A stretch of DNA of 64,000 bases, from contig JBCCVZ010000005.1 in assembly GCA_039194425.1 (NCBI GenBank), positions 293,144 through 357,143 of the forward strand, in the 5' to 3' direction. The notes beneath the pieces are model-generated. The model did no database searches, was not told the origin of the DNA, and was given only the letters and a program-made list of their open reading frames with translations. Positions 30,501-49,184 of the stretch are shown here, piece after piece. The first letter of the stretch is position 1, and each line of letters opens with the position of its first letter. The position numbers and the translations under genes were made by a program. The stretch comes from Acidobacteriota bacterium (GTDB lineage Bacteria > Acidobacteriota > Thermoanaerobaculia > Multivoradales > J023).

Positions 30501-30741
30501 CGGTGCGCGCGGACTGGTCACCAGCCTGTGGCCAGTCGGTGATCGCTGGGCGATGCAGTCGATGCGAGCGCTCTACCAGAGCTTCGTGCGTCATGGTGAC
30601 ATGCCGCTCGCAATCCGCGACGCAGCTCTCGAGGTGCGGGCGGAGTCTCTGCGCACGAGTGGTCGGAGTCTCCCGGAACGCTGGGCTGCGTTCGTTGCCG
30701 AGGTCGGAGATCCCGTGGTCAACCTGAGGAGGACACGATGA
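27571..30741 (+). CDS. Secreted TPR-repeat + CHAT (caspase-like) protease
   Basis: Signal peptide MKLRALAVVLLGA; TPR repeats (HPIQARSHHNLG, HPRTVATLSRLG); VPDGAL, HFATH, LSGC and SLWPV motifs. Confidence 0.88.
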   Translation: MKLRALAVVLLGATSLGAQPNAFSAAEIDQAIVRLADDVRSDRVLDLEFCQRLLKQVEVQNGRTSSRYAQLLELTIEARIRDGERRSEQLFDMALELAELRAVTKDEQPESYARALHLLGRLEQLGGRFDHALEFYQVALDLRRTLDGSPLEIARTFESLGSVLDDLGRRAEALEMLEEALEILDAEGAGGEAARVLNTLGGTLHRLGEHEEAAAAFARAIDVGRQVFGSLHPIQARSHHNLGYVAHVLGDIERAESNLRQALEVRVQVHGEVDPVTASSQAALGELEHDRGFLHKAREHLEAAWAAQRVGLGDEHPRTVATLSRLGALLADLGLGEEALEAQLEALTVSRRVYPGGDVSTAEILLRLAAVERDRGGLAPARRYLLEAQEIYRRGTKDRHVGAARVECRLAALDEVAGDSVKAAHGFALCDALLARRDLEHPGRIDSLRGLSRTARELGTASRYLQRAEILARSLVGEIHPLRSEIQVEKAVLLARGGEVTAALAEALTASARARQWVRIGVAGLSHREADRFERLGRRPLDLVVSLARRHPEVSVGAVWGEVIAARSLVLDTQVFRARLGRECAGTARRAKLEELDRSTQRLGALWHRGSGVLPEDSRARLATSLRRRAESLERDLAADPDCPMPELQEPSLDAVRERLQQVGDAAILLATARYTDLLADSGAERDRYAAWIATPGAMPLFLDLGPAAALEESIDTWRKVMLGALEGRVDEAEVEAARDGLSALLWRPLAPHLESLTAERANDPIEPAERLLWVPDGALRGVALPALRDERGRDLLDVLPPVVRLASERDLVATVSPKAHGRGLLAVGAPLAAPMEVDTGAELVDPEAPRLPTLEGAEAEVHAIVRLWNESTTNSASVAAVLLGPTATEEAVRRHAVGAEVLHFATHVTRVEVDDLLLGSALVLTGFGSFDRSGQPGDDGYLSAAEVARLDLGATSWVVLSGCESFGALQRAFRFAGARGLVTSLWPVGDRWAMQSMRALYQSFVRHGDMPLAIRDAALEVRAESLRTSGRSLPERWAAFVAEVGDPVVNLRRTR

Positions 30742-31109
30742 AGAAGGAAGAGGACAGACAAGGCGCAGGAACGCTGGCCAACCAGGAGGCGGCGGCTCCC
30801 GAGGCGTCGGTTTCCGAGACGAGAGAGACGCCCGCGATGTCGTTCGGGGCGCGGCAGCTGCGCAGCGAGAAAGGGCCGAGGAGCGTTCGCGTCGTTCACG
30901 CCGGCGATGGCAGGGCGACCCTGCTCATGCCCCGCGAGATGGTCGAGGCGTTGGTGGTGGGGTTGCAGGGCAAGGACTTGTCGGACCCCGGAAGCCTGCC
31001 TCCCGGCGTGTCTCTCGACGCCGAAGGCAACCTGGCTTTCTCGATGGGCGAGAGAAGTGTCACCTCGATGATCTCGTGGGCGCGGATCGACGACGTCTGC
31101 TTCCCCTGA
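30738..31109 (+). CDS. 123-aa small protein, candidate RiPP precursor
   Basis: RBS GAGGAGG; ATGA overlap with the CHAT gene; 8 bp upstream of the rSAM gene; C-terminus SWARIDDVCFP. Confidence 0.6.
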   Translation: MKKEEDRQGAGTLANQEAAAPEASVSETRETPAMSFGARQLRSEKGPRSVRVVHAGDGRATLLMPREMVEALVVGLQGKDLSDPGSLPPGVSLDAEGNLAFSMGERSVTSMISWARIDDVCFP

Positions 31110-31117
31110 GCCGGACG

Positions 31118-32149
31118 ATGACCACCGCGACCAGCCTCGATCCAGTCGCGTGGGACGATCGCTTGCCGTACCTGGCGAACGACGTTCTGCGCCTGATCGT
31201 GATGCCTACCGAGCAGTGCAACCTGCGCTGCGTCTACTGCTATGAGTCGTTCGAGATCGGCCGGATGGGCGACGATACCGCCCAGGGCATTCGGCGTCTG
31301 CTGACGCGGCGAGCGCCGGGCTTGAGCCGGCTGCGGCTCGACTGGTTCGGCGGCGAGCCGCTGCTCGCCGCCGACCGTATCGAGGAGATCCAGGAGCATG
31401 CGAGCGCGCTCGCGGCGCGCCACGGCTTCACGCTCGAGGCCGAGGCGACCACCAATGCCGTGATGCTCGACGCCGAGAGGCTGCACCGCTTCGCCGCGCG
31501 GGGGCTGCGCCGCTACCAGATCTCGCTCGACGGCCCGCCCGAGGAGCACGACCGCAAGCGCACCGGCGCCGGTGGTCGAGCGACCTTCGCGACCATCTGG
31601 CGCAACGTGCGGACGGCGCTCGAGAGCGATCTCGAGCTCGAGATCCTGCTGCGTGTGCATGTCGACCGCGACAACGCGGCGTCGATCCCGCGCCTGCTGG
31701 CGATGTGCCGCGACGAGCTGCCGTGGGACGAGCGGATTCGGCTCTTCCTGCGTCCGCTGTCGCGCCTCGGAGGGCCGAACGACGCGCGGCTGCGCATACT
31801 GGGGGCCGAGAAGGACCAAGTCCTCGCCGACCTGCGCGAGCAGGCGCGGCGGCTCGGCCTCGGCGCCGGCTACGCCGGGCCCGAGGGCGTCGCGGTGTGC
31901 TACGCGGCGGCGGCCAACGCCTTCGTCGTGCGTGCCGACGGCGGCGTGTCGCGCTGCACCGTGGCGCTGGACGACCCGCGCAATCGCATCGGTCGGCTCA
32001 CTCCCGAGGGCAGGCTCGAGCTCGACACCATGGCGCAGGAGCCGTGGCTGCGCGGGCTGCTCGACGGCGACGCGCGTGCTCTGACGTGTCCGCTGAAGGC
32101 CCTGCGCTCCGACACGGCCGGCGCTTCGCCGCTGCGCGTCGTGGCGTGA
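31118..32149 (+). CDS. Radical SAM enzyme with reduced SPASM/twitch-like C-terminus (putative peptide maturase)
   Basis: PTEQCNLRCVYCYE (CxxxCxxC), WFGGEPLL, TTNA and ISLDG motifs; C-terminal CYA...RCTV...CP. Confidence 0.9.
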   Translation: MTTATSLDPVAWDDRLPYLANDVLRLIVMPTEQCNLRCVYCYESFEIGRMGDDTAQGIRRLLTRRAPGLSRLRLDWFGGEPLLAADRIEEIQEHASALAARHGFTLEAEATTNAVMLDAERLHRFAARGLRRYQISLDGPPEEHDRKRTGAGGRATFATIWRNVRTALESDLELEILLRVHVDRDNAASIPRLLAMCRDELPWDERIRLFLRPLSRLGGPNDARLRILGAEKDQVLADLREQARRLGLGAGYAGPEGVAVCYAAAANAFVVRADGGVSRCTVALDDPRNRIGRLTPEGRLELDTMAQEPWLRGLLDGDARALTCPLKALRSDTAGASPLRVVA

Positions 32150-35116: not shown

Positions 35117-38100
35117 ATGGGATCTTTCGTCGTGACTTGGAGCTTCCGTGGCAGCAGGCGTGGGCCCGTGGAGGGGTTCGGTGGGGTCTGGGGCCTGGCC
35201 TGGAGCATGCTTTGCGCAATCCACCTGGTGGTGGTTTCCGCCGCCGCGCAGCAGCTCGACTTGCGACACTACGATCAGGCGGACGGCTTGCCGCAAAGTC
35301 AGATTCTGACCCTGGAGCGCGACCAGCTCGGCTACTTGTGGCTCGGCACGTTCTCGGGTCTGACGCGGTACGACGGTGCCGACTTCGATACCTGGACCAC
35401 CGACGACGGCCTGCGGGCTAACACAGTCTTTCAGCTCACGGTGGCCCCGGACGGTCGTGTGATCGTCCACTCGGCGGACTCTGTGTGCGTCGTCGACCCC
35501 GGGCGGCTCGACGTGATGCCGTCGGGCTCGGCCGGGGGCGACGCCATCGCGTGCCATCCGTTCGACCTGGGGTCGGTGCGCGGTCTGGCGATCGACCCCG
35601 ACGGAACGATTTGGGCTCCGACCGACCGTGGTCTCTTCGCGCTCGAGGTGCCGGGGCCGTCCGGCGGCGAAGCCAGCGAGCGTCTCTACGGTCTCGCCGA
35701 CGGACTGCCGAGCCTCGACCTGCGCGATGCCACGGTCGACGCCGACGGGACGGTGTGGATCGGCACAGCGGGTGGGCTCGTCCGCCTCGCCGCCGGTCGG
35801 TTCGAGACGGCCGACGGCGCCCTCGGCACGGCGGCGATCACGTTCGTCGCTCACGGACCGCCCGGTATCGTCGTCGGCACCGAGGACGCGGGGGTCTTCG
35901 TGCGCCGCGGCTCGGAGACCACCGCGGTGCCCCTGCCGGCCGTGGTCGAGGACACAGCCTTCTTCGACGCCGCGTTCGACCATTTCGAGCGCCTGTGGAT
36001 CGCCACCGGCCGCGGCGTCGTGCGTGTCGACGGGAACGACTCGCGTCTCTTCGGCCGGCAGAGTGGCCTGCCTTCGTCGTTGGTGCGCGAGATCGAGTTC
36101 GACGGTGAGCAGGTGCTCTGGTTGGGCACGGACGACGGTCTCGACAAGTTGGTGCCAGGGCCGTTCGCCACCTACGCGATGTCGGAGGGGCTGCCCAACC
36201 CGATGGTGCGGACGCTGGCCGTGGGGCCGCAGGGCCGACTGTGGGTCGGCACGCGCGACGGTGTCGCCGTCGGCGGAGTCGAGGGCTTCGACGAGATCCC
36301 GCTGCGCGGCATCGACGACCATCGGGTGTATGGCCTGGCGGCGGCGGAGGCCGGCATGCTGATCGGCACCCGCGACGGTCTTCTGTGGTGGCGCGGAGGC
36401 GAGATCGAGCGCCGCTGGCGCCGCGGCGACGACGGCTTGCAGAGCGACTTCGTGACCTCGCTCTTCGCCGACGGAGAGCGTGTCTGGGTCGGCACCGATC
36501 GCGGCATGGGGTGGTGGCACGAGGGGCGCTACGAGTTCCTCGACCGCCCTGAGCTGGCCGACTCGTTCGTGATGAAGATCCGGCGGGATCGTCGCGGTCG
36601 GCTGTGGGTCGCGACGACCTCGGGCGCCTTCGTCCTCGAAGCCCCCGAGCGCGGTGCCGACTCGCCGCTGCGCCGCCTGGGCGAGGCCGACGGGCTCACC
36701 CGGCAAGCGATCTGGGATCTCGATGTCGACGCCGAGGGCGGAGTTTGGCTGGCGACCAACGGCGACGGGGTGTTCCACGTCACCGCCGAGGAGGACATCG
36801 CACACTACGCGGTGGCCGATGGGCTCACCGACCCCTTCGTTTGGCAGAGCCTGGTCGACACCGACGGAGCGGTGTGGCTCTACACCAACCGTGGGCTCCA
36901 TCGCTTCGCCGGCGGCGAGTTCACGCATTTCGGCCCGGGCGAAGGCCTGAGCGTGCTCGAGGGAAGCGCCACGGCCTCGCTCGTCGGACCGGATGGGGCG
37001 CTGTGGTTCGGCACGCCGCGCGGCGTGGTGCGCTACGAGCGCGACCTCGCTCCGCCGCCGCTCGAGCCGCCGAGGGTGGTGATTCAGAGCGCTCACTCAG
37101 AGCGCCTCGGGCGGCTCGAGTCTGGGGCCTCGGTGCCCTGGAGCTTCGGCGGGTTCACGCTCCATTTCGCCGGTCTCTCGCTGCGCGACGAGGCGTCGGT
37201 GCGCTACCGCTGGCGCATTGTCGGCGGGGAGTGGTCGGAGGGTGCGTGGTCGGCGCCGGTGGTCGAACGCAGCCTGCGATTCGCCTCGCTCGCGCCGGGG
37301 CTCCATCGAATCGAGGTCGATGCGGCCAACGATGCCGGCTGGAGCGACGCACCGGCGCGTTTCGAGCTGCGCGTGACCCCGGCGCCGTGGCAGACCGTGC
37401 CGTTCCGGGTCGGCCTCGCGCTGGTGGCGGTAGGCATTGTGCTCGGCGCGGTCCGCCTCCGCATGCGCCGACTCGAGAACGAGCGCAGCCGCCTGGAGAC
37501 GCTGGTCGCCGAGCGCACCGCCGAGCTCGAGGCGAAGACTCGCTCGCTCGAGCGCGAGATCGGCGAGCGGACCGAGGCCGAGCGGGCGCGCCGGAGCCTC
37601 GAGGAACGCCTGCGCCAGTCCGAGAAGATGGAGGCGGTCGGCCGACTGGCCGGCGGTGTGGCGCACGACTTCAACAACTTGCTGACGTCAATCTACGGCT
37701 ACACCGAGCTTTTGCTCGCGGAGACCGAACCTGAGTCTCCCCAGCAGGTCGATCTCGAGGAGGTCCGGCGCGCCACCGAACGCGCGACCAAGCTCACCCA
37801 GCAGCTGCTCGCCTTCAGCCGTCGCCAGGTCATCGAGCCGGTGGTCCTGCACCTCGATCCGGTGGTGCTCGACTTGGTGCGCATGCTCGAACGGCTGCTC
37901 GGCGAGGACATCGATCTCGAGACCCGGCTCGAGGCCGATCCAGACCTGGTGCGGGTCGATCGCAACCAGCTCGAGCAGGTGTTGGTGAACCTGGCCGTCA
38001 ACGCCCGCGACTCGATGCCGCGCGGCGGCCGACTCGAGATCGGCACGCGCTTCGAGCCGGAGGCGCGCGGCGACTTCGACGGCGCGCCCGGTCCCGCCGT

Positions 38101-38740
38101 CGTGCTCGAAGTTCGCGACAGCGGAGAAGGGATCGAGGGGGAGCTGCTCGAGCACATTTTCGAGCCGTTCTTCACTACCAAGGAGCGCGGCCGGGGCACC
38201 GGCCTTGGCTTGGCGACGGTCTACGGCATCGTGCGGCAGAACGGTGGTGCGGTCGACGTCGACAGCACGCCCGGGCGCGGCACGACCTTCCGCGTCGTCT
38301 TGCCGGCCGCGGTCGGCGAGGTGGCCGAGCCGTGGAGCCGGCCTCGTCCGTCGGTCGAGATCGGGGGCGGTGAGGGGCTCTGCGTGTTGGTGGTCGAAGA
38401 CGAGCGGTCGGTGCGGACCTTGCTCGACAACCTCCTCGGCCGAGCCGGTTACCGTGTGACCACGGCGGCCGACTGCGCCGAGGCGTTGGCTAGTCTCGAG
38501 TCGATCGAGGAGCCCTTGAGCCTGCTGATCGCCGATCTCGTGATGCCCGGAGTCAACGGCCGCGAGGTCGCCGAACGGGTCGTCGCTCGCCGACCCGAGG
38601 CGCGGGTGCTCTTCATGTCCGGCTACCCGGCGAAGGTCCTCGGCCAGCGCGGCATTCTGCCCGCCGGCGCCGAGTTCCTGCCCAAGCCGTTCACTCCCCA
38701 GATGCTCTTCGATGCCGTGCAGGAGACTCTCGCGCGATGA
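35117..38740 (+). CDS. Hybrid sensor histidine kinase (beta-propeller Reg_prop repeats, Y_Y_Y, HisKA, HATPase, REC)
   Basis: Repeated GL..D..G.LW.GT motifs; LAGGVAHDFNNLL, NLAVNARD, PFFTTK, GTGLGL; REC motifs DLVMP and KPF; start may be downstream. Confidence 0.93.
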   Translation: MGSFVVTWSFRGSRRGPVEGFGGVWGLAWSMLCAIHLVVVSAAAQQLDLRHYDQADGLPQSQILTLERDQLGYLWLGTFSGLTRYDGADFDTWTTDDGLRANTVFQLTVAPDGRVIVHSADSVCVVDPGRLDVMPSGSAGGDAIACHPFDLGSVRGLAIDPDGTIWAPTDRGLFALEVPGPSGGEASERLYGLADGLPSLDLRDATVDADGTVWIGTAGGLVRLAAGRFETADGALGTAAITFVAHGPPGIVVGTEDAGVFVRRGSETTAVPLPAVVEDTAFFDAAFDHFERLWIATGRGVVRVDGNDSRLFGRQSGLPSSLVREIEFDGEQVLWLGTDDGLDKLVPGPFATYAMSEGLPNPMVRTLAVGPQGRLWVGTRDGVAVGGVEGFDEIPLRGIDDHRVYGLAAAEAGMLIGTRDGLLWWRGGEIERRWRRGDDGLQSDFVTSLFADGERVWVGTDRGMGWWHEGRYEFLDRPELADSFVMKIRRDRRGRLWVATTSGAFVLEAPERGADSPLRRLGEADGLTRQAIWDLDVDAEGGVWLATNGDGVFHVTAEEDIAHYAVADGLTDPFVWQSLVDTDGAVWLYTNRGLHRFAGGEFTHFGPGEGLSVLEGSATASLVGPDGALWFGTPRGVVRYERDLAPPPLEPPRVVIQSAHSERLGRLESGASVPWSFGGFTLHFAGLSLRDEASVRYRWRIVGGEWSEGAWSAPVVERSLRFASLAPGLHRIEVDAANDAGWSDAPARFELRVTPAPWQTVPFRVGLALVAVGIVLGAVRLRMRRLENERSRLETLVAERTAELEAKTRSLEREIGERTEAERARRSLEERLRQSEKMEAVGRLAGGVAHDFNNLLTSIYGYTELLLAETEPESPQQVDLEEVRRATERATKLTQQLLAFSRRQVIEPVVLHLDPVVLDLVRMLERLLGEDIDLETRLEADPDLVRVDRNQLEQVLVNLAVNARDSMPRGGRLEIGTRFEPEARGDFDGAPGPAVVLEVRDSGEGIEGELLEHIFEPFFTTKERGRGTGLGLATVYGIVRQNGGAVDVDSTPGRGTTFRVVLPAAVGEVAEPWSRPRPSVEIGGGEGLCVLVVEDERSVRTLLDNLLGRAGYRVTTAADCAEALASLESIEEPLSLLIADLVMPGVNGREVAERVVARRPEARVLFMSGYPAKVLGQRGILPAGAEFLPKPFTPQMLFDAVQETLAR

Positions 38741-39351
38741 CGCTGACGACGATCGAGCGCGCCCCGGGTCGCGCCGAGGCGCTGGTCCGTCGCTGGTACC
38801 AGCCGGTCCGCGGCTACTTCCGCGGCCTCGGCCTCTCGCTCGACGAGGCCAAGGACCTCACTCAGGAGACATTCTTGCGCGCCACTCGCGCCGCCGACGA
38901 CTATCGCGGCGGCCTCGACGAGGCGAGCTGGATCTTCACGATTGCCGACAACGTGTGGAAGAACGAGCTGCGGCGCCGCGGCGCGCAGAAACGTGCCGCG
39001 GACACGGTGTCGCTCGAGAGCAGCGCGCCGGGTGACTATGACGAGGGCGAAGCGTGGCTCGACCCACCGGCACCGGCCGCCGGGCCGCTCGATCGGGCGC
39101 TCGATCGGGAGCGTCGGGAGCGTCTCGAGAGCGCCATCGCCACCTTGCCGCCGCGGATGCGCCGCTGTTTCGAGCTGCGGTTCGTGGAGCAGATGAAGTA
39201 TCGTGAGATCGCCGCGCTCGAGCAAGTGAGCGAGAGCACGGTGAAAACGCAGATGTTCCAGGCGCGCCGCAGGCTGCGCGAGCTGCTCGACGACGACAGC
39301 GCGTTCGCCACGGCGGCCGACTCCCGCGACGACTTCGAGGAGGCGATGTGA
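38737..39351 (+). CDS. ECF-type RNA polymerase sigma factor
   Basis: DLTQETFL, WIFTIADN, LPPRMRRCFELR, YREIA and TVKTQMFQARRRL motifs. Confidence 0.93.
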   Translation: MTLTTIERAPGRAEALVRRWYQPVRGYFRGLGLSLDEAKDLTQETFLRATRAADDYRGGLDEASWIFTIADNVWKNELRRRGAQKRAADTVSLESSAPGDYDEGEAWLDPPAPAAGPLDRALDRERRERLESAIATLPPRMRRCFELRFVEQMKYREIAALEQVSESTVKTQMFQARRRLRELLDDDSAFATAADSRDDFEEAM

Positions 39352-40091
39352 GCACACCCTCCGAGCCTTGGCGTGACGCCTTGTCCGCCGTGTCCCGCGA
39401 ACGCGCCGCGCGTGCGCCCGAGGTCACGGTCGCCGAGCTCGTCGCCTACCGTCGCGGCCGGCTCGCCGAGGACGACGCCAATCGGGTGCGCGAGGCGCTC
39501 GCCGCGCAGGCGTCTCTGCGCGCGCTCTACGCCGCGGTGCCGGCGGACGACCCCGAGCCGGTAGTCGACGATCCCGAGGTCGACGCGGCGGTCGCGTGGC
39601 TCCGAGAGCAGTCGGAGGGCGCGGACCGGGTCGTCGCGATCGACACGCGGCGCAGCGGCACGCCTTGGCGCACGGTCCTGGCGACGGCCGCGCTCGCTCT
39701 GGTCGCGGTGGCGACGGTCTTCGTCTTCGGTCCAGGGGCCGAGAATCCGCGTTTTGAGTTGGTCTTCGGTGTGCAGGATGAGGGCGTCCGCGGAGGCGGG
39801 CCGACGGTAAAGACGATCGAGGTGGAGCCGACGCGACCGTTCGTTCTCGTCGTGCCGGACGACCTGCTCGACGACGGGTCGTGGCAGGTCAAGCTGTGCG
39901 GTCCGATCCAGCATGTGCCGAACCGCCCGGACTGCGACGATCCGATCCTCAAGCACCCGGTCGACGCCGAGCATCGGGAGGTCGAGGTCGGACCGCTCGA
40001 TGCCGGGTACTACGTCGTCTTGGTCGAGGAGACCGAGGGCGCGAAGTTCCATTCCATGGTTCTCGAGGTGGTCCTCGACGACGACCGATGA
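39348..40091 (+). CDS. Putative membrane anti-sigma factor
   Basis: Coupled to the sigma gene (GTGA overlap); ASD-like ELVAYRRGRL; single TM; C-terminal extracytoplasmic domain. Confidence 0.7.
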   Translation: MSTPSEPWRDALSAVSRERAARAPEVTVAELVAYRRGRLAEDDANRVREALAAQASLRALYAAVPADDPEPVVDDPEVDAAVAWLREQSEGADRVVAIDTRRSGTPWRTVLATAALALVAVATVFVFGPGAENPRFELVFGVQDEGVRGGGPTVKTIEVEPTRPFVLVVPDDLLDDGSWQVKLCGPIQHVPNRPDCDDPILKHPVDAEHREVEVGPLDAGYYVVLVEETEGAKFHSMVLEVVLDDDR

Positions 40092-43000
40092 TCGCGGACT
40101 GGCCTCGAGCAGGGCAGCACGCACTCCGCCGGGACCTCATGCGCCTGCTTGCCGGCCTCGGGCTCGTCGGCCTGGCTGCTGCTCTTGTCTGTGGTTCCGA
40201 GGAGCCGGGCGTGGGGCTCGAGCTCGGTCAGCGGGAGTCGACCCAGGCGCTAACGGCCGGCCAGCAGCGCGAGCATCTGGTGGATCAGAGTTCGGACCGA
40301 GACGAGTCGGTCGTCTGCTTTGTCCAGTCGTGGCGACCGCATCGCGTGGACGCGGCGAGTGTGCGCCGCGTCGGTGGGCTGACGCTGCTGGTGACGACGA
40401 GCTCGATTCTTCGCGTCGACGCGCTGGGCGACGCCGGCACGGGGGGCGAAGTCGATCTCCTGTGCTCCGCTGCCACGCTCGCCGCCGCGCGCCGGGTCGA
40501 GGCGCTCGGCGAGCTCCTCGACATCGCCGAACGCCTGCGCGCCATGCCTGTGTCGAACGTCGCGGCGGCGGACTGGATCGATCAGACCTACGAGGCCGTC
40601 GCGCACGGTTTGAATGGCCTCACCGACGCCGACGATTCCCGATGGTGGCGACAGGCGGCGGGGGAGGTGACGCTGCGGCGGGCTCGCTGGCGCGCCGTGC
40701 GCGGTCACGCCAAGCTCGCTGACGCGCTCTTCCGGCGCGCCGCCGACAAGCTGGCGGCGGGCGGCGCCGTCGAGCAGGGGCATGCGGCGCTCCTGGTGGG
40801 AGTCAGCGACTTGCGGCGTCTCGGTCGCCTCGAATTGGCCTGGAAGCTCGCGACGACCGCGGTCGAGCGCGCCGAGGCCCTGGCAGACGACCGCGACGTC
40901 GACCCCGACCTCGCGCTCGAGCTACAGGCTGCTGCGTACGATCGCCTGGCGCGAGTCGAGCTCGACCTGCGCGCGCTGCAGTCTGCCCTGGGGCACTACC
41001 GGCGTGCTCTGGCGCTCGACCAGCAGCGGATCAAGCGGCTGCTCGAGGAGCCGGACGGGTCTCACGCCGGGGCGTCGACGTCCTCTCGCCGTCGCTGTGG
41101 TGTTCCCGGAGCTCAGCTGCCACTTGAAACCGTGATGTACGAGGAGGCGTGCGCTTTCGACCTCGCGCCGGCCGCCTTCACGTCCGGAAAGGGCGGCGTG
41201 CCGGGGTCCGTCGACCTGGCGCGCCGCCATCGGCGGGTTGGCGTGGCGCACCTCCAGCTCGGAGACTTCGACGACGCCATCCACTCCTTCCAGTGTGCCC
41301 TGCACTGGCGGACCGCCGACACGCGGTGGAACACGGTCGCTGGCGCCTGCCAGGGACTTGCTGATGCAATGCGAGAGCGCGAGGAACTCAATACGGCGCA
41401 GCAGATTCTCGAGGTCCTGGTCGAGCAGCCGGGCTCGTCGGCCGACCTCGCCGATCGGGAGAGGCAGCTCGGCCTGCTCGCCTGCAATGACGCCGAGCGC
41501 TCACCGACGCAGCGCCTCGAGGCTGCGCGCGCGCATCTGGCGCGCTCGCTCGCTCACGCCGATCACGAAGCGCTGGGCGGTTTGCGGGTCGACCTGCAGA
41601 TGGAACGCGCCGAGCTCGAGCTGTCGTCGCCCTGCGCCGATCCGCGCGAGGGTGACCTCAAGAGCGCCGCACGGGCTCTAGCCGACGTGGCGTCGGCGCC
41701 GGAGTCCGTGCTGACGCCGGCCCGTCGTGCGCACCTCGACTTCCTCCAGGGACACCTCGCCGAGGCGCGAGGGGACCTCGAGACCGCGGCCGCTGGCTTT
41801 GCTGCTGCGGCCCGGCGCCTCGATCGACTGCTGTCCGCTCCCGACACGTCGCTCCACCGCGCCATCGCCTCGATGCACCGTGCCGCGCGGGGACGGGACG
41901 AGAGAGTCGATCTCGCGGCGCGTGCGCGGGTATACCGGGAGGCGGAGATCCGTCTGCGATTGCGGCGGGGTACCGCTGAGAGCTCCGAGGTGTCGGCGGC
42001 CCTGGCCGAAGAGACGGCCGCAATGGCGCTCGGCTGGATCGGGCGCTCGGAGCTCTGGTGGCAGGCACGCCGCGCAGCCCGGGGCGCAAACGAGTCGAGG
42101 GGGCATGCGGCGCTCTCCGCCGATCTCGCAGGGGACGAGCTCGCGGCGTGCGGCACCAAATCTGTCACCAAGGCCGACCACGCAACCGGGGGCGACGACC
42201 GCGCCTGCCTCGACGCACTGCGTGCGCGCCTGCCAGACGACACCACCGCGTTGGTCTACTGGTACGGCGAGTCGATCGTCTACGCCTGGGCGCTGCGCCG
42301 CGAGCGCGTGCACTTTGCCTCGCTCGAACGCTTGCCCCTCGACAAGGCTCTGGGCAAGCTGCAGAAGGCGATGCAACCAGGCGCCGAGGAGGACGAGTTC
42401 GATGAACCGCTCGACGCCCTCTCGGCACAGCTCCTGGAGCCCTTCTCTGACTCGATCGACGCCTCCGAGCGCCTACTCGTCGTCCTCGACGGACCGTTGC
42501 ACGGCGTCCCCGTCTGTGCCCTCCGGCGCACCTGGCGCGACGCGGACCCACCCCTCGGGGGTGAGCCCGCGCCGCCGCTGATCGCGAGTCACCGCGTCGA
42601 GCGCACCGCGTCGCTGCCGGTGCACCTGGCGGCGCCGCAGCGTCTGCACGAGGCTCCTGGCGCGGAACGCACCGCGCTCCTCGTCGCACCGTTCTACGAC
42701 GGCTCGAACCACTGGCGGCCCCTCGACGGGCCAGAGCGCGAGGTGGCGGAGCTGGCGCTGCGCCTCGAGCCGGCGGCCGAGGTCGAGGTCTTGCGTGGCG
42801 ACGCGGCGACCAAGTCCGCGTTCCTCGACGCGCTGCCGTCGGCGAGGTGGGTCCATTTCGCCGGCCACGCCGACGGTTCGCTGCGCCACGCCGACGACGC
42901 CGTGCTCGCCCTGTCGCCGGGCCCCGCGGGTGACCGCGAGCTCCGCGCGGCGGAGATCGCCTCGCTCGAGCTGAGCGCCGAGCTGGTGGTGCTCGCCGCC

Positions 43001-43300
43001 TGCCGCAGCGGCCTCGGCGAGGAGCTCGACGGCGAAGGACTCTTCGGCGTCGCGCGCGCCATGCGCCGCGCAGGCGCACGGGCCGTCGTCTCGACTCTTT
43101 GGCAGATCGACGACGAGGCGACCGTTCCCTTCGTCCTCGACCTCTATGACCGTCTGCTCTCCGGCGCGTCGCCGTCGTCGGCGCTGCGTCAGACGCAGAT
43201 CGAGGCCGCGCGGCGAGGCATGGCGACTTCGGTGTGGGCGGCGTTCGTGCTCGAGGGCGACGGAGCGCCGCCGCTGGTCTCCGACCCGTCGGGTTCCTGA
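40088..43300 (+). CDS. Exported TPR + CHAT (caspase-like) protease
   Basis: Hydrophobic N-terminus ending ALVC; helical repeats; LDGPLHGVP, HFAGH, LAACRSGLG...GEG, STLWQI and WAAF motifs. Confidence 0.9.
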   Translation: MIADWPRAGQHALRRDLMRLLAGLGLVGLAAALVCGSEEPGVGLELGQRESTQALTAGQQREHLVDQSSDRDESVVCFVQSWRPHRVDAASVRRVGGLTLLVTTSSILRVDALGDAGTGGEVDLLCSAATLAAARRVEALGELLDIAERLRAMPVSNVAAADWIDQTYEAVAHGLNGLTDADDSRWWRQAAGEVTLRRARWRAVRGHAKLADALFRRAADKLAAGGAVEQGHAALLVGVSDLRRLGRLELAWKLATTAVERAEALADDRDVDPDLALELQAAAYDRLARVELDLRALQSALGHYRRALALDQQRIKRLLEEPDGSHAGASTSSRRRCGVPGAQLPLETVMYEEACAFDLAPAAFTSGKGGVPGSVDLARRHRRVGVAHLQLGDFDDAIHSFQCALHWRTADTRWNTVAGACQGLADAMREREELNTAQQILEVLVEQPGSSADLADRERQLGLLACNDAERSPTQRLEAARAHLARSLAHADHEALGGLRVDLQMERAELELSSPCADPREGDLKSAARALADVASAPESVLTPARRAHLDFLQGHLAEARGDLETAAAGFAAAARRLDRLLSAPDTSLHRAIASMHRAARGRDERVDLAARARVYREAEIRLRLRRGTAESSEVSAALAEETAAMALGWIGRSELWWQARRAARGANESRGHAALSADLAGDELAACGTKSVTKADHATGGDDRACLDALRARLPDDTTALVYWYGESIVYAWALRRERVHFASLERLPLDKALGKLQKAMQPGAEEDEFDEPLDALSAQLLEPFSDSIDASERLLVVLDGPLHGVPVCALRRTWRDADPPLGGEPAPPLIASHRVERTASLPVHLAAPQRLHEAPGAERTALLVAPFYDGSNHWRPLDGPEREVAELALRLEPAAEVEVLRGDAATKSAFLDALPSARWVHFAGHADGSLRHADDAVLALSPGPAGDRELRAAEIASLELSAELVVLAACRSGLGEELDGEGLFGVARAMRRAGARAVVSTLWQIDDEATVPFVLDLYDRLLSGASPSSALRQTQIEAARRGMATSVWAAFVLEGDGAPPLVSDPSGS

Positions 43301-43310
43301 GGGGCCTCTC

Positions 43311-43334
43311 AACCTTTTTCTGGCGCCGGGGTCT
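43311..43334 (+). promoter_or_regulatory. Possible ECF-sigma promoter upstream of the 49-aa peptide gene
   Basis: AAC-N17-GTCT, a generic ECF -35/-10 layout; short motif, weak evidence. Confidence 0.35.
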
Positions 43335-43397
43335 CCGCCCCTGTGCGCCATCGAATCATGCCGCCCGGCGCCGCGGCACGACGGAAGGAGACCTCTC

Positions 43398-43547
43398 ATG
43401 CAGTGGAACCATGCGCAGACCTCGATGCTCGACCTCGCGGCCCCGTTCTTCGGTGATCCGCCCGACGATCCGCCTCCCGGTGGCGGCAAGCAGGGCATCG
43501 ACGGCGAAGCCGAAGAGTCTCCGGGCTCGAGCTCGAGCCCGGGCTGA
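43398..43547 (+). CDS. 49-aa acidic Pro/Gly/Ser-rich peptide
   Basis: Strong RBS GGAAGGAG 7 nt before ATG; MQWNHAQTSMLDLAAPFFGDPPDDPPPGGGKQGIDGEAEESPGSSSSPG. Confidence 0.65.
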   Translation: MQWNHAQTSMLDLAAPFFGDPPDDPPPGGGKQGIDGEAEESPGSSSSPG

Positions 43548-43614
43548 GCACGGACGATGAACGCACGCGGCGGCCCGCCTCGGCGCGCCGCCGCGTTCTT
43601 GGGGACCGGATTCG

Positions 43615-44994
43615 ATGAAGAGCCCTGCACGGGACCTGCCGACAGGACGCTGCCTCGCCGTCGACGCCGAGAGCGGCGACTATGCCTTCGCGCCGATGAC
43701 GGCGTCGGCGCTGGCGCGCCGCATCGCCGGTCGTCCGCTGTCCCGCCGGCCCGTGGCCTATGGCATCGCCGCCGGCGATCTCGCGGAGGCCGGATGGGGC
43801 ATGATCGTGCCCCACGACCTCGACCCCCACATCGACGAGGCCCTGGCGCCGCTCGTGGGTCGGCGCCGCGAGGAGACCGGCGACGCGCTCTATCGCCGCC
43901 TGGTTCACATCCCGGGGCGCCGAGCCGGCGACCTGTTGGCCTCCCTGCGCGCCGGACCCGGCCGCGTCGACCCCCGGCGCTTGCCGTACTACCTGTTGTT
44001 CGTCGGTGATCCGGAGTCGGTGCCCTACGGCCTTCAGCACGACCTCGCGATGCAGCATGCGGTCGGTCGGCTCGATCTCGCGACGCCCGACGAGTACGCG
44101 GCCTACGCCTCGACCGTGCTCGCCGCCGAGGACGCCGCGATCCGGCGCATCGACGAGCGCTCGATGGCCGTCTTCGCGCCGCGCCACGGCGACGACCCGG
44201 TGTCGCGCGTGTGCCGCGACGATCTCGCGCGGCCGCTGGCCGACGCGCTGCGCCCCCGTCTCGGCGATCGTCTCGAGGCCATCGTCGGCGACCCCGCTGA
44301 CCGTGATTGCTTCGATCGCCTGCTCGGCGCCGAGGGACCGTCGTTGTTGGTGGGTGTCGGGCATGCGCTCACCCTGCGCCTCGGCCGCCCCGGCAGGAGT
44401 GAGCGCCAGGGCGCGGTGATCGGAGCCGGCTGGGGTGGGCAGCAGGCCGGGCCGGTGCCGCGGGCGCTCTGCTTCGAGGCCGAGGACGTCGGCGCGCGGC
44501 GGCTCGAGGGGCAGATCGTCGTCCTGGTCGGCTGCTTTACCGCCGGCACGCCGCGCGGCGACTCCTACGCGGCGCCGGAGGCGGCGGAGAGCTTCGGCGA
44601 CGAGGCGACGCAGGGCGTGCGCGCGCTCGGCGAGGGTGCAGTGCTCGATCCGCCCTTCGTCGCCGCGCTGCCACGGCGCTTGCTCGCCGCCGGCGCGCTC
44701 GGCGTCATCGGCCATGTCGATACCGCGTTCGAGCACGGTTTTCGCTGGCCGGAGGGAGAGCCGCAGATCGGTGCCTTCCGCGAGCTCGCCGAGGCGCTGC
44801 TCGACGGTCGCCGGACGGGCCTCGCGATGGAGGCCTTCGGACAGCGCGCGCTGCACCTCGGCCAGCAGCTGCTCGAAGCGACGATCGGCCGCGGCGATCG
44901 AGCGGTCGACGAAATCTACCGCTGGATCGCGTACCACGACGCGCGTTCCTACGTGCTGCTCGGCGATCCGGCGGCGCGCTGGCCGCGCGGCTGA
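43615..44994 (+). CDS. Gingipain/peptidase C25-like (clan CD) cysteine protease
   Basis: PYYLLFVGDP and AVGRL motifs; putative dyad GVGHA / LVGCFTAG; terminal YVLLGDPA. Confidence 0.72.
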   Translation: MKSPARDLPTGRCLAVDAESGDYAFAPMTASALARRIAGRPLSRRPVAYGIAAGDLAEAGWGMIVPHDLDPHIDEALAPLVGRRREETGDALYRRLVHIPGRRAGDLLASLRAGPGRVDPRRLPYYLLFVGDPESVPYGLQHDLAMQHAVGRLDLATPDEYAAYASTVLAAEDAAIRRIDERSMAVFAPRHGDDPVSRVCRDDLARPLADALRPRLGDRLEAIVGDPADRDCFDRLLGAEGPSLLVGVGHALTLRLGRPGRSERQGAVIGAGWGGQQAGPVPRALCFEAEDVGARRLEGQIVVLVGCFTAGTPRGDSYAAPEAAESFGDEATQGVRALGEGAVLDPPFVAALPRRLLAAGALGVIGHVDTAFEHGFRWPEGEPQIGAFRELAEALLDGRRTGLAMEAFGQRALHLGQQLLEATIGRGDRAVDEIYRWIAYHDARSYVLLGDPAARWPRG

Positions 44995-45009: not shown

Positions 45010-47184
45010 GTGAGAGGTCGTCGCCCAGCCCCTCGACATCAGGGACCGAGCCGGCATGCCCTGCTCGTCGGCGTCGAACGATACCCGGGCTTCGACGACT
45101 CGGTGACCCTGCGTGGCTGCCGCAACGACGTCGCGCTCGTCGCCTCGGTGCTGCGTGAGCGCTTCGGATTCGACGACGGACCGCACGCGGGACGCTTCGA
45201 CGTTCTGCTCGACGAAGAGGCGACGCGCGATGCGGTGGTCGCGGCGCTCGGACGGCTCTTGCAGGCCATCGCGCCGGGCGATGTCGCCGTCGTCTACTTC
45301 AGCGGCCACGGCTCGCAGGTCACCGACCTCGAGGGCGACGAGGGCGATGGGCTCGACGAGACGCTGGTGCCCTTCGACGGCACGCGGCGGGGGCCCCATC
45401 GCGAGATCACCGACGACGAGATCCACGCCTGGCTCGCCGTCGCCGCCGCGAAGACCCACTTCGTCACCACGATCTTCGACTGTTGCCATGCCGGCAGCCT
45501 GTGGCGCCACCGCGGTCCGATGCGCATCCGCCGGGTCGCGCCCGATCGGCGCTCGGCGGTGGCGCTGCGGAGACCGCCGCGTCCTTCGTGGGCGCGCAGG
45601 ATGAGAAGGAGCCGAGCGGACGGAGAGATCGCGCCGGTCCTCGACCACGTCCATCTCGCCGCGTGCCGCGACGACGAGCTGGCCGGCGAGTTGATGGCGT
45701 CGCAGACCGGCTGCGGAGTCCACGGCGCCTTCACCTTCCACCTCTGCCGGGCGCTGCTCGATGCCCGGGGAGACGCCACCTGGCGCGACGTGATCGAATG
45801 CGTGCGCGGCACGATCGTCGCCCACCACCCCGCGCAGACTCCGGAGGTCGAAGGCGCGCGCGATCGCCTGCTCTTCGGCGTCGGCGACCTGCCGCCGCGG
45901 AAGCATGTCTTGGTGAGCGCCCGTCGCGAGCCGACACGAGCGAATTCGGCCGGCGCGTCGCCGAGGGTCGAGCTGGCGGCGGGTGCGGCTCTCGGTCTCA
46001 CCGCCGGCTCGCTCTGGCGGCTGACAGCTCCGGGATCGCGCGATGCCTCGACTCCGGTCGGACGGCTGCGCCTCGACACGGTCGGTGCCGCGCGCGCCGC
46101 CGGACCGCTGCTCGAGGAGAGGTCCGCGGGCCTTGTCGCTGCCGGCTGCCGCGCCTTCGAGGAGGCACACCACCACGGCGACCCGGTGCTCACGGTCGGC
46201 GTCGCCCGCCGCGGCGTGACGCGCCGCGAACTGCCCGCGTCGTCGCTGCGGGCGCTGGAGCGAAGCCTCGACGCGGCGCCGCTGCTGCAACGCGTCACGC
46301 TCGACGAGGCCGAGGTCCAGGTCTGGGCGCTCGGCCGTCGAGGCGGCGCGGCGGCGGACGATCCGGTGCCGCAGCTCGGCGCTCTCGGCGAGCCGGTGTG
46401 GGCGTTGGTCGACGCCGGTGGACGCCTGCTCGAGACGCCGCGTCCAGTCGTGGGCGATGCCGACGCGCAGCGGCTCGGCGTCATCTCGAGACTCGTCACG
46501 CGCCTGGTGCGCCAGGCGCGCTGGCGTCGCGCCTTGGCGCTCGAGAACCCCGATCCGTCGAGTCGCCTGCGCGGCCGCGTCGGCTTCGAGCTGCTGCGGT
46601 GCTCGGAGGACGGCTCGTGGGGTGTGTGGCCAGCGGGGGAGGATCCGTTCTACGACGAGGGTGGACGTTTGGCGTTCGCGCTCGAGAACCGCTCGGCCGA
46701 GCCCGTGTACCCGTACGTCGTCGATTTCGGGTTCACCGGCGGCATCGATCTGCTCTACCCGCCGCGCGGAGGCCACGAGCTGCTCGAGCCGGGTCTCGCG
46801 CTGAGTACCGGGGTTGCCTCGACGATCGCCGATCGCTCGATCCGGCTCGGCTTTCCGCGCGACTGGCCGCGCTCGGACGATCCGGCGACCGGCCGGCCGA
46901 CTCCCGGGCCTGGCGTACTCAAGCTCTTCGCCACCACGACGCCGGTCGATGTCGAGCTGCTGACCCAGCCCGTGCCGTGGCGTACGCGCCCCGGTGAGCT
47001 GGCGGGAACGGGCCGACGCGATCATCCCCTGGCCCGGCTGCTGGCGCTCGACGATGGGCTACAGCGCCTGCGCGGTTTCGAGCTCGCCGAGGATTCGGCG
47101 CGCGATGGCGGTGCGTGGGCCGACGACTGGACGACCGAGATTCGTCGCTACCTGCTCGTCCCGTGGGACGAATCAGCACGCTGA
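45010..47184 (+). CDS. Metacaspase (peptidase C14) with C-terminal DUF4384-like domain
   Basis: ALLVGV, LRGCRNDV, YFSGHGSQ, DETLVP, IFDCCHAG, HGAFT and QTP motifs. Confidence 0.92.
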   Translation: MRGRRPAPRHQGPSRHALLVGVERYPGFDDSVTLRGCRNDVALVASVLRERFGFDDGPHAGRFDVLLDEEATRDAVVAALGRLLQAIAPGDVAVVYFSGHGSQVTDLEGDEGDGLDETLVPFDGTRRGPHREITDDEIHAWLAVAAAKTHFVTTIFDCCHAGSLWRHRGPMRIRRVAPDRRSAVALRRPPRPSWARRMRRSRADGEIAPVLDHVHLAACRDDELAGELMASQTGCGVHGAFTFHLCRALLDARGDATWRDVIECVRGTIVAHHPAQTPEVEGARDRLLFGVGDLPPRKHVLVSARREPTRANSAGASPRVELAAGAALGLTAGSLWRLTAPGSRDASTPVGRLRLDTVGAARAAGPLLEERSAGLVAAGCRAFEEAHHHGDPVLTVGVARRGVTRRELPASSLRALERSLDAAPLLQRVTLDEAEVQVWALGRRGGAAADDPVPQLGALGEPVWALVDAGGRLLETPRPVVGDADAQRLGVISRLVTRLVRQARWRRALALENPDPSSRLRGRVGFELLRCSEDGSWGVWPAGEDPFYDEGGRLAFALENRSAEPVYPYVVDFGFTGGIDLLYPPRGGHELLEPGLALSTGVASTIADRSIRLGFPRDWPRSDDPATGRPTPGPGVLKLFATTTPVDVELLTQPVPWRTRPGELAGTGRRDHPLARLLALDDGLQRLRGFELAEDSARDGGAWADDWTTEIRRYLLVPWDESAR

Positions 47185-47207
47185 CCGCTCACAACCTCGG
47201 AGACGAC

Positions 47208-49184
47208 ATGAACAGTCCAGATGCGACGCGACAGGAACCAACATTCGCTGCGGCTCTCGAGCGCTACGCCACGTTCGACCTCTTCGTCACGCTCGAGCCC
47301 GAAGGATCGCGCTGGCGCGTGTCACACATCGACGACGGTCGGCTCGTCGAGACGCGCGTCGCTGCGCCGTTCGAGCCCGGCGAGCTCGACGACCTGCTGG
47401 AGCGTCTCGGCTGGTCGCGCAGTCGTGACGCCCGGCGCGAGGAGGCCGAGCCGCGCGCCGCCGCGATCGAGATCGGCGAACGCCTCTACCGCGCTCTCTT
47501 CGCCGCCGAGGTCGGCCGCTGTTGGCGCGCGGCTCGTCGACGTGCGCGGGAGGAGGCGAGTGGGCTGCGCCTGCAGCTGCACGGGCCCGAGCTCGACGCG
47601 CTGCCCTGGGAGCTGCTGTGCGACCCCGAGAGCCGAACGCTCCTTGCCGCGTCGGTCGAGACGCCGCTGTCGCGCGTGCCCGGCAAGCGCGCGGAGCGGC
47701 GGCTTCAGATCCTGGTCGAACCGCTGCGCGTTCTGGTCGTGGTCGCCGCGGGCGACCTCGATGTCGATGCAGAGATCGAGCGCATCGACGATGCACTGAA
47801 GCCCATGGTGGCACGGCGCCGCGTCGTGCTCGAGGTTCTGCGCCGACCGTCCGCGGACGCGCTGCGGGCGCGGCTGCGCGACAGCGAGAGCCCGGTGCAC
47901 GTGCTGCACTTCATCGGTCATGGCCGCTACGATCCGGACCAAGGCGAAGGCTGGCTGAGGCTGGCGGACGGCGCGGTCGACACGGAGGGCGTCGCGGCGG
48001 AGCCCGAGGAGGTCGACGCCGGGCGTCTTGCCCGCTGGATCGACGGCAGCGCCATTCGCTTCGTCGTGCTCAACGCCTGCGAGAGCGCCCGTCACGCCGG
48101 CAGCACGGCGCTGCGCGGCGTGTCGGAGGCGTTGGTGCAGCAGCGCGTGCCGGCGGTGCTGGCGATGAAGGCACGCATCGCCGACGATGTCGCCATCGGG
48201 TTCGCCGCGGCCCTCTACCGCGCTCTCGCCGCCGAGGCTCCGGTTGACGTCGCGGTCGCTGCCGCCCGCTCGCATGTTCTCGACCAGTGGACGACGAACG
48301 AATGGGCGCTGCCCGCGCTCTACCTCCACAGCGAGAATGCGCAGCTCTTCAGTCTCACCCCCCGCCGGCGTCGGCGGTGGGAGCTCTTCCCGGCCGGCGC
48401 CGTGGTCGGCGGACTCGTTGCTGCCTTAGTCGCCTGGTGGTTCTGGCCGCCTCCGGCGTCGGATCCGCGCTGCCCGTCGCCGCGCGGAATCCACCTTCCC
48501 ATGGTTTTCGTGGCCGCCGATGCCTTCTACATGGGGTCGGACGAGCGGTCCGACGAGAGGCCGATTCATCTTCAGACAGTCGAGCAGGATTTCTGCATCG
48601 GCCAGTACGAGGTGACCCGGGAGCAGTGGGGGCATTTCATGGGTGACGACGTGCCGGAGTTCCGGGAGGATGGTGCTGCGAACGAGCCCGTGCGATTTGT
48701 CTCGTGGAATCGGGCCAACAAGTTCATCGAGGCGCTGAACCGCGCTTCGAGTGGGGATCCATTCGATCTCCCGACGGAAGTGCAGTGGGAGTACGCTGCA
48801 CGTGCTGGCTCCGAGGATCTCTTCTTCTTCGGTGACGACCCGGAGCTCCTGCACTACTTTGGCAACTGCCGCAATCCTGTCAGCGACGACTATGAGGATG
48901 CCGTGGCACCGGTCGGCAGCTTCAACCGCAACGACTGGCATCTCTACGACGTCCACGGCAACGTCTCGGAGCTCACGAAGACCATCTATCGGCCCTACGC
49001 CGAGGGCCCGCCCAAGCCCGAGGAGCTCGAGGAAATCCGCTATGTCCGGAGGGGAGGAAGCTTCGACGTGATCCCGGACAGCTGCCGGCTCGCGCGTCGC
49101 TTCACCATCGACTCGGAATGGGTTCAGCGTGATGTCGGTCTTCGCATCGTCCGGACGGCGCTCGAACTCGACGACATCGAATAG
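47208..49184 (+). CDS. CHAT protease + TM + FGE-sulfatase (SUMF1/CLec) domain protein
   Basis: LPWELL, LHFIGHG and VLNACES motifs; RRRRR then TM; FYMGS, YEVT, LPTEVQWEYAARAG, DVHGNVSE and RGGSF motifs. Confidence 0.9.
   Translation: MNSPDATRQEPTFAAALERYATFDLFVTLEPEGSRWRVSHIDDGRLVETRVAAPFEPGELDDLLERLGWSRSRDARREEAEPRAAAIEIGERLYRALFAAEVGRCWRAARRRAREEASGLRLQLHGPELDALPWELLCDPESRTLLAASVETPLSRVPGKRAERRLQILVEPLRVLVVVAAGDLDVDAEIERIDDALKPMVARRRVVLEVLRRPSADALRARLRDSESPVHVLHFIGHGRYDPDQGEGWLRLADGAVDTEGVAAEPEEVDAGRLARWIDGSAIRFVVLNACESARHAGSTALRGVSEALVQQRVPAVLAMKARIADDVAIGFAAALYRALAAEAPVDVAVAAARSHVLDQWTTNEWALPALYLHSENAQLFSLTPRRRRRWELFPAGAVVGGLVAALVAWWFWPPPASDPRCPSPRGIHLPMVFVAADAFYMGSDERSDERPIHLQTVEQDFCIGQYEVTREQWGHFMGDDVPEFREDGAANEPVRFVSWNRANKFIEALNRASSGDPFDLPTEVQWEYAARAGSEDLFFFGDDPELLHYFGNCRNPVSDDYEDAVAPVGSFNRNDWHLYDVHGNVSELTKTIYRPYAEGPPKPEELEEIRYVRRGGSFDVIPDSCRLARRFTIDSEWVQRDVGLRIVRTALELDDIE

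Follow-up and report, generated by a model that had tools for sequence, protein, structure and literature searches.

The window analysed here, a stretch of 64,000 nucleotides from an Acidobacteriota bacterium (assembly GCA_039194425.1, contig JBCCVZ010000005.1), contains a co-directional array of genes in which a small open reading frame (ORF) for a 49-residue peptide follows a TPR-CHAT protease gene. According to Pfam, the array comprises a kinase, a sigma factor of the extracytoplasmic function (ECF) type, a 247-aa protein, the TPR-CHAT protease, the peptide, a C25-like protease, a caspase-domain (C14) protein, a CHAT-FGE protein and a DUF6159 membrane protein. All coordinates of this array refer to the plus strand of the window. 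The TPR-CHAT gene ends with a stop codon at 43298-43300. The peptide gene occupies 43398-43547, stop included (ATG at 43398, TGA at 43545-43547), and is preceded by a Shine-Dalgarno sequence, GGAAGGAG, at 43383-43390, the spacer to the ATG being 7 nt long (ACCTCTC). Its 49-aa product, MQWNHAQTSMLDLAAPFFGDPPDDPPPGGGKQGIDGEAEESPGSSSSPG, carries an FFG followed by DPPDDPPPGGGK and then by an acidic and Ser-rich tail. Asp plus Glu, Pro, and Gly make up 16% each, Arg is absent, and the single Lys, K31, is followed by QGIDGEAEE. The GC content by codon position (0.68/0.58/0.80) has the shape expected of a coding sequence, even though the shape is weaker than in the neighbouring genes (0.65-0.80/0.45-0.56/0.82-0.88). 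Taken alone, the ORF is only moderately improbable by a shuffle test. When the 314-nt gap at 43301-43614 was shuffled 5000 times with its dinucleotides preserved, 141 of the shuffled sequences had a comparable arrangement, i.e. a 4-mer resembling a ribosome-binding site (RBS), an ATG and an ORF of at least 45 aa.

A preliminary description of this DNA had reported a strong RBS 7 nt before the ATG, a 49-aa ORF and an upstream AAC-N17-GTCT, and all three are found in the sequence. It had also called the gene hidden, which was overstated: the exact peptide is already predicted in a collection of 5.8 billion proteins (one member, one contig) and is also present in the ESM Atlas, though in both cases without a name. 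The remark that both TPR-CHAT genes of the window are followed by a small ORF is loosely true, but the second ORF encodes 123 aa and does not resemble the peptide by eye. This second ORF (30738-31109) overlaps the stop of the second TPR-CHAT gene (27382-30741) via ATGA, has an RBS (GAGGAGGA) and a coding-like GC pattern (0.64/0.52/0.84), gave no NCBIfam match and no relative in 60 related genomes, and is followed by a radical-SAM gene (31076 or 31118 to 32149).

The 49-aa peptide has no signal or transmembrane segment, as judged by hydropathy and by eye, and matches no Pfam or NCBIfam family. Neither does it look like a double-glycine-leader precursor or a precursor of a ribosomally synthesized and post-translationally modified peptide (RiPP), in as much as no leader family was found and the residues preceding its GGG are Pro and Asp, not hydrophobic ones. 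No exporter or RiPP enzyme was detected by Pfam among the genes scanned between 35117 and 50084. We also considered whether the ORF might continue the CHAT gene after a frameshift, and rejected this because the stretch between the two holds a conserved promoter as well as the RBS.

This promoter, at 43310-43334, has CAACCTTT as its -35 and GGGTCT as its -10 element, with AAC at 43311-43313, 17 nt, and GTCT at 43331-43334. According to published work on DdvS, an ECF sigma factor of Myxococcus xanthus, AAc/cGT elements are common to ECF promoters, and mutations show that AAc in the -35 and GT in the -10 element matter for DdvS-dependent and other ECF promoters (PMC6061681). When the stretches from the CHAT stop to the ORF start were compared, the pattern cAACCTTT(T)-N-CGGGTC(T/C) was found a few bases past the CHAT stop in the window and at loci L024, L025 and L029. 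A regular expression for the promoter gave 12 matches in 5 foreign loci (about 73 kb) as opposed to 32 in the whole 8.1-Mb genome from which the window derives. A position weight matrix (PWM) was then made from the 12 foreign sites only (24 nt, training scores 26.4-36.1 bits), and it ranks position 43311 of the window first in the 8.1-Mb genome with 26.6 bits, the next scores being 22.6, 21.0, 19.8 and 18.5; this ranking is partly circular, as the seeding expression was written with the window site in view, even though the matrix also rewards positions outside the expression. At L021, L022, L024, L025, L027, L028, L029 and L033 the small ORF is preceded by a site scoring 18 bits or more. The sigma factors belonging to the module are 36-46% identical to that of the window. 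The recurrence at foreign loci and the first rank in the genome both support the preliminary assignment, and AAC-N17-GTCT is strongly indicated, by sequence comparison, to be a conserved ECF-type promoter. A scan for sigma-70 promoters and terminators gave no match, nor did Rfam on 42800-44000.

At L054 and L058 there are copies of the promoter at several places: one upstream of the operon with the sigma, anti-sigma and TPR-CHAT genes, one right after the CHAT stop and one further downstream. In both loci the upstream copy is immediately followed by a DUF1508 gene (L054:9688-10098 and L058:6687-7013), which comes before the sigma, anti-sigma and TPR-CHAT genes and is absent from the window. 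Among the lower-ranking matches in the genome of the window, the second best (22.6 bits; L145, G000:C1:34332, minus strand) precedes a small frame that has a signal-peptide-like start (MRTHTTRLIVLIALLLFMSPSAFA...) and an Asp/Pro-rich end. The third best (21.0 bits; L144 around 6999, G000:C4:10998, minus strand) is found some 150 nt upstream of a type I-E cas3 operon, recognized by Pfam through Cas3_HD (2.6e-29), Cse2 and Cas7/CT1975, which echoes the control of CRISPR-Cas by DdvS in Myxococcus.

The position of the peptide gene, between a CHAT gene and a C25-like gene, is a conserved slot. The family of the 459-aa C25-like protease is present in multiple copies in 41 of the 61 genomes searched. 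We looked at two samples, which share several loci so that their counts are not independent. In the first one, the 30 best-per-genome loci of the family in related Acidobacteriota, a CHAT C-terminus was directly upstream on the same strand in 19, and in 15 of these 19 loci an ORF of 30 aa or more, starting with ATG and having an RBS-like 4-mer, was found in sense orientation in the gap, as opposed to none in antisense (0/19). L027 and L033 have such ORFs too, but overlapping the edges of the search windows used. The exceptions are L030, whose CHAT protein instead ends in a fused acidic tail, and L032, where nothing was found. The second sample consisted of 80 records, mostly from Thermoanaerobaculia and Holophagales but also from Chloroflexota, Nostoc and others; 17 loci had a separate upstream CHAT gene, with a sense ORF in 13 and an antisense ORF in 3.

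The slot peptides are 32-98 aa long, acidic and rich in Asp, Pro and Gly, and many of them carry D-P...DPK-x-GG-hydrophobic-acidic units, some as 2-4 tandem copies, the amplification preserving the reading frame. Tandem units of about 22 residues (e.g. DDGDPTSSDPKAGGFDGVGQHK), in 2-4 copies, are found at L028, L033, L022, L027, L035 and L072 and are reminiscent of multi-copy peptide precursors. The peptide gene always adjoins the C25-like gene, and the promoter stands between the peptide and the CHAT gene. Judging by the source names in the protein collection, the slot-peptide family is known only as 'hypothetical protein'. The same genome contains two more paralogous modules, L051 (G000:C19) and L052 (G000:C1), both without the promoter motif of the window; in one of them the C25-like protein itself starts with MSNSGGDPKSD, while in the other there is a 100-aa slot ORF with NDPPDNDYPKTG (L052:11408-11710).

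Two pairs of slot peptides could be compared at the codon level. In the same-genus pair L026/L031, the C-terminal 36 codons contain 15.5 synonymous as opposed to 3.5 non-synonymous differences; the proportions of synonymous (pS) and non-synonymous (pN) differences in this core are 0.58 and 0.043, i.e. dN/dS is about 0.07, whereas both the 22 codons at the N-terminal end and the non-coding DNA around the ORF have diverged. The adjacent protease gene of this pair has a pN/pS of 0.15/0.67. In the second pair, L022/L064, pN/pS is 0.113/0.368 for the peptide and 0.072/0.193 for the adjacent protease. With two further orthologs from the protein collection, the same-genus pair becomes a group of four that has PWRAG-DDPP.DPTQTDDTAKAGGGLPLEGADEPLD as its invariant core, and the best-conserved part of this group is the non-proline KAGGGLPLEGADEPLD, which is under strong purifying selection. 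It follows that these slot ORFs are translated and constrained. The preliminary description had named the absence of similar peptides at homologous loci among what would refute its proposal; small acidic, Asp/Pro/Gly-rich ORFs do fill the same slot at such loci. With the slot occupancy and the purifying selection in both pairs, 43398-43547 is most likely a real small gene.

The gene next to the peptide (43615-44994) encodes a 459-aa cysteine protease without a signal peptide. Its His-Cys dyad, H250 (GHG) and C307 (FGC..AGTP), is invariant in 30 homologs. The Pfam family Peptidase_C25 is matched by 24 of 30 family members (E<=0.1, best 6.7e-10); the protein of the window scores 17.4 bits against PF01364 (E 0.0027), below the gathering cut-off of 23, and we call it C25-like for this reason. 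An AlphaFold2 model (pLDDT 86.1, pTM 0.89) placed the gingipains Kgp and RgpB at ranks 1-5 of a Foldseek search (E 1.2e-08 to 1.2e-06, TM-score about 0.46), followed by separase and Craspase, while a sequence search of the PDB with the C25-like profile gave no relevant match. By its modelled fold the protein is thus gingipain-like, of clan CD, and not a filed member of C25.

TPR-CHAT and C25-like domains also occur as one protein, both in the genome of the window (L053) and in seven relatives. The linkers of these fusions are 50-100 residues long, acidic and rich in Pro and Gly, and some of their words resemble the peptides by eye: DDPPIEKDAGGGGLLE, DDPPIEKDAGGGGLLEPTG in L148, and GIDDEVPG...EPGKSGAFRFE in L053. 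At L023 and L063 peptide-like repeats continue in frame into the C25-like ORF (603 aa). The L053 fusion (L053:7668-12407, G000:C18) has 1579 aa and no signal peptide. Another CHAT protein and an OLD-family AAA_15/TOPRIM protein are among its neighbours (L053:3614-5524 among them), which suggests a defence-island setting for this locus.

Upstream of the peptide lies a putative sensor module. A hybrid histidine kinase with Reg_prop repeats (35117-38740) is followed by the ECF sigma factor (38737-39351; Pfam Sigma70_r2 8.8e-13, Sigma70_r4_2 1.6e-17, Sigma70_ECF 2e-05), and the kinase gene ends 4 nt inside the sigma gene. Because of this overlap, the two-component sensor and the ECF module appear to be translationally coupled in one operon. 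The next gene (39348-40091) encodes a 247-aa anti-sigma candidate that has a single transmembrane helix around residues 107-132, followed by about 115 more residues. This protein gave no Pfam or NCBIfam match, has no Cys in its cytoplasmic part and no visible N-terminal Cys/His zinc motif; counterparts in the same position and with a single transmembrane segment by hydropathy are found at L054, L055, L056, L058 and L061. The TPR-CHAT gene (40088-43300; Pfam CHAT 2.4e-49, TPR_1) has a likely start that overlaps the anti-sigma stop. Its product begins with RRDLMRLLAGLGLVGLAAALVC, i.e. a basic stretch and then a hydrophobic segment (16-38) ending in Cys, which is signal- or lipobox-like, and 8 of the 10 non-fused TPR-CHAT proteins inspected have such a segment (e.g. 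LAGC, LIGC, VVAC). Because of this N-terminus and the pairing with a single-pass membrane anti-sigma candidate, the TPR-CHAT protein looks extracytoplasmic or exported, like DdvA, the anti-sigma partner of DdvS.

Downstream of the C25-like gene are the genes of a 724-aa caspase-domain protein (45010-47184; Pfam Peptidase_C14 2.4e-24) and of a 689-aa CHAT plus FGE-sulfatase protein (47115-49184; Pfam CHAT 2.6e-22, FGE-sulfatase 1.5e-34). Neither the 459-aa protease nor the caspase has a hydrophobic N-terminus, a signal or a transmembrane segment by hydropathy. Between the peptide stop and the protease RBS there is a GC-rich hairpin of about 13 pairs followed by UUCUU (43565-43601). Its minimum free energy is -35.3 kcal/mol, with a z of only -1.6 relative to shuffles, and it was missed by the terminator scan; of the 17 loci inspected, 4 have a hairpin, and in at least 5 there is none or none is possible. 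The element may act as a partial terminator or attenuator, and it could make the peptide transcript more abundant than that of the protease.

Two parts of the overall picture are strongly indicated. Firstly, the peptide gene would be the first cistron of an operon (peptide, C25-like, C14, CHAT-FGE) driven by the ECF-type promoter. Secondly, the sensor would consist of the ECF sigma factor, a single-pass anti-sigma and an exported TPR-CHAT protein, i.e. a split form of DdvS-DdvA. We tentatively add a third part, and the whole then falls somewhat short of being probable: a sigma-driven protease operon in which the peptide is a putative substrate or regulator of the gingipain-like protease. An envelope sensor would release the sigma factor, upon which the peptide and the cytoplasmic caspase-like proteases would be made together. 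The peptide, acidic and probably disordered, would be a substrate or pseudosubstrate of its gingipain-like neighbour, perhaps as a propeptide in trans, a securin-like brake or a decoy cleavage site. Its counterpart in the fused relatives may be the acidic linker between the TPR-CHAT and the C25-like domain. The partnership is suggested by the constant adjacency, by the fusions, and by the single Lys in a K-x-G-hydrophobic-acidic context, given that the neighbouring enzymes have structural relatives that cut after Lys or Arg.

A number of observations weigh against this reading. Beyond the peptide itself, no relative was found in its own genome or among the 5.8 billion proteins. A tblastn search revealed no paralog in the genome, the ESM Atlas returned only the peptide, and the best hit of a six-frame search of the 60 related genomes (E 0.0011) was at noise level. 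Because no sequence relative was found, selection is not measurable on the window peptide. A hidden Markov model of the DPK-x-GG units of other genomes misses the peptide when run on the six-frame translation of its own genome, and hhalign against the same-genus peptide profile aligned 8 columns with a probability of 6.7%; for these two reasons we treat the peptide as a positional member of the family. It does have the defining position, a small sense ORF with an RBS between the CHAT stop and the C25-like start, and its kinship by sequence is only suggestive. A blastp comparison with the same-genus slot peptides found only the 6-mer DPPDDP in common (E 0.013, single comparison), which the window peptide shares with two members of the four-member group and which occurs once in the whole six-frame translation of the genome, namely in this peptide. 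The DPP..GG motif class proposed in the preliminary description is consequently borne out as far as DPPDDP is shared with same-genus peptides, but profile methods do not establish homology. We give little weight to the expression K.G.?[FMLIV][DE]G, which was written after the sequences had been seen and matches the window peptide and three others (43 matches in 15.4 million background residues). The motifs pointed to here were, in general, picked after the sequences had been seen.

Other points against the reading concern the fusions, the promoter and the export signals. The profile comparison (hhalign) of the same-genus peptides with a fusion linker was not significant (E 0.17). When a natural fusion, that of L053, was modelled with AlphaFold2 (864 aa, 8-sequence alignment), its domains folded but its linker came out disordered (pLDDT 23-43). 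By PWM, the window has no second promoter site of at least 12 bits, and none upstream of the sigma gene; the latter is therefore probably expressed from the promoter of the kinase. Finally, the export signals were judged by hydropathy and by eye and not by a dedicated predictor.

Several other explanations have to be considered. In the preliminary description the TPR-CHAT protease was the partner, with the peptide as its ligand, its substrate or a feedback inhibitor. The peptide could, for example, be an exported self-signal that is bound by the TPR part and closes a loop on the sigma factor. The two genes do adjoin, but the promoter separates them and points to different expression of the peptide and the TPR-CHAT protein. 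The latter looks exported, whereas the peptide has neither a signal peptide nor a double-glycine leader and the downstream proteases have no export signal either, which disfavours TPR-CHAT as the partner, and the operon shows no sign of an exporter. TPR domains classically bind acidic C-terminal tails. A similar-looking segment is also covalently joined to CHAT in the fusions, and L030 has an acidic tail on its CHAT protein; the fused forms, however, lack a signal peptide and may be a different, cytoplasmic class. On balance we regard a ligand of the TPR-CHAT protein as unlikely.

It is, in our opinion, also improbable that the ORF is a regulatory leader in which a ribosome pause at DPPDDPPPG and the hairpin at 43565-43601 set the expression of the protease while the peptide itself plays no role. 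The ORF is in the 5' part of the operon, and the GC-rich hairpin with its UUCUU stands directly between its stop and the next RBS, with similar hairpins at L024, L037 and L040. The z of -1.6 is, however, not significant, and there is no hairpin at the loci whose ORF touches or runs into the protease gene (L022, L025, L027, L033, L035). Consecutive prolines are pause sites that depend on elongation factor P, yet many family members have no Pro-Pro, and the part that is best conserved and under strong purifying selection in the same-genus group, KAGGGLPLEGADEPLD, is free of proline.

An evolutionary leftover is quite unlikely; the ORF would then be a linker orphaned from a TPR-CHAT-C25-like gene that was once fused, maybe translated but functionless here. 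Against this speak the strong, ideally spaced RBS and the conserved promoter just ahead of the ORF; the slot is filled in most homologous loci, both testable pairs are under purifying selection and the tandem amplification to 2-4 units keeps the frame. What can be said for it is that fused forms exist, one of them (L053, 1579 aa) in the same genome, that the window peptide has no ortholog on which selection could be measured, and that its GC at third positions (0.80) is slightly below that of the neighbours. A chance ORF in GC-rich non-coding DNA, with only the promoter being functional, would fit the 2.8% of shuffles that contain a comparable ORF and the lack of a homolog, but is very unlikely given the 15/19 sense as opposed to 0/19 antisense ORFs across loci, the coding-like GC by codon position and the rare DPPDDP shared with same-genus slot peptides.

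The reading in which the peptide acts on the gingipain-like protease has a bolder version, which we consider doubtful. Here, sigma-controlled, disordered 'linker-derived' peptides would gate cytoplasmic caspase-like proteases as a bacterial counterpart of securin, an undescribed class. The TPR-CHAT protein would sense an envelope insult, e.g. phage attack, the ECF sigma factor would be freed and the peptide and proteases would be switched on, possibly together with the type I-E CRISPR-Cas operon that has a similar promoter. The step that commits the cell to protease-mediated arrest or death would then be the loss of the peptide by destruction or titration.

It is instructive to compare the locus with known systems. 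DdvS-DdvA of Myxococcus xanthus is a pair of an ECF sigma factor and a transmembrane anti-sigma that controls a CBASS (cyclic oligonucleotide-based antiphage signalling system)/CRISPR-Cas island (PMC11506125, PMC6061681), and DdvA, which has a periplasmic TPR-CHAT part, is described as the only characterised anti-sigma of its kind (PMC11506125). The locus appears to share with it the ECF sigma factor, the membrane anti-sigma and an extracytoplasmic-looking TPR-CHAT with a His-Cys dyad; the Ddv system has several AAc...GT promoters in one locus, and so do the relatives L054 and L058, while a single site was found in the window. There are differences as well. Unlike in DdvA, the anti-sigma (247 aa) and TPR-CHAT are separate genes here, TPR-CHAT having its own signal- or lipobox-like N-terminus, and no N-terminal zinc-binding anti-sigma domain was seen in the 247-aa protein. 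The putatively regulated neighbours are a small peptide and three clan-CD proteases rather than CBASS or type III CRISPR, and no small peptide gene is described in the available text of the Ddv papers (PMC11506125, PMC6061681). As far as can be judged from sequence, the module is a variant of the DdvS-DdvA kind, with a peptide family that has no Pfam or NCBIfam model.

The neighbouring protease resembles the gingipains (PDB 4rbm, 6i9a, 4ief) in its predicted fold (Foldseek E 1.2e-08 to Kgp, probability 1.0) and its His-Cys dyad, but the TM-score is about 0.46, identity is 12-13%, and there is neither a signal peptide nor a C-terminal domain of the type IX secretion system. Gingipain prodomains inhibit the mature enzyme, going by the title of PDB entry 4ief ('pro- and mature domains'); such a prodomain is much longer than the 49-aa peptide, and the two are unrelated in sequence. 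In separase-securin (PDB 5u1t, 5mz6) a clan-CD protease is held by a disordered pseudosubstrate protein. The locus likewise encodes a small acidic protein, presumably disordered, together with a protease of this clan, which is a pure analogy: separase is among the fold matches of the protease (Foldseek ranks 6-17), but no sequence similarity was found. In Craspase (PMC10028731) the TPR-CHAT protein Csx29, in complex with Cas7-11, cleaves Csx30, the holder of an ECF-type sigma factor, and TPR-CHAT is tied to sigma control as it seems to be here. The window locus, unlike Craspase, has no CRISPR effector. Csx30 is moreover a folded protein of several hundred residues, as opposed to the 49-aa peptide. 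In the literature (main texts), where papers on DdvA/DdvS and on Craspase came up, we found no description of the peptide or the operon, and none that joins Peptidase_C25, CHAT and ECF.

Taken together, the locus and its relatives present a split DdvA-like sensor and, linked to it through a promoter that can be recognised, an operon in which a fast-evolving peptide leads three caspase-like proteases. The promoter matrix offers a direct route to reading the regulon in uncultured Acidobacteriota. If the peptide is indeed a brake or a substrate, it would offer a way into the question of how caspase-like effectors are kept harmless in bacteria until they are needed, and it would mark a family of small genes that is so far recorded only as 'hypothetical protein'.

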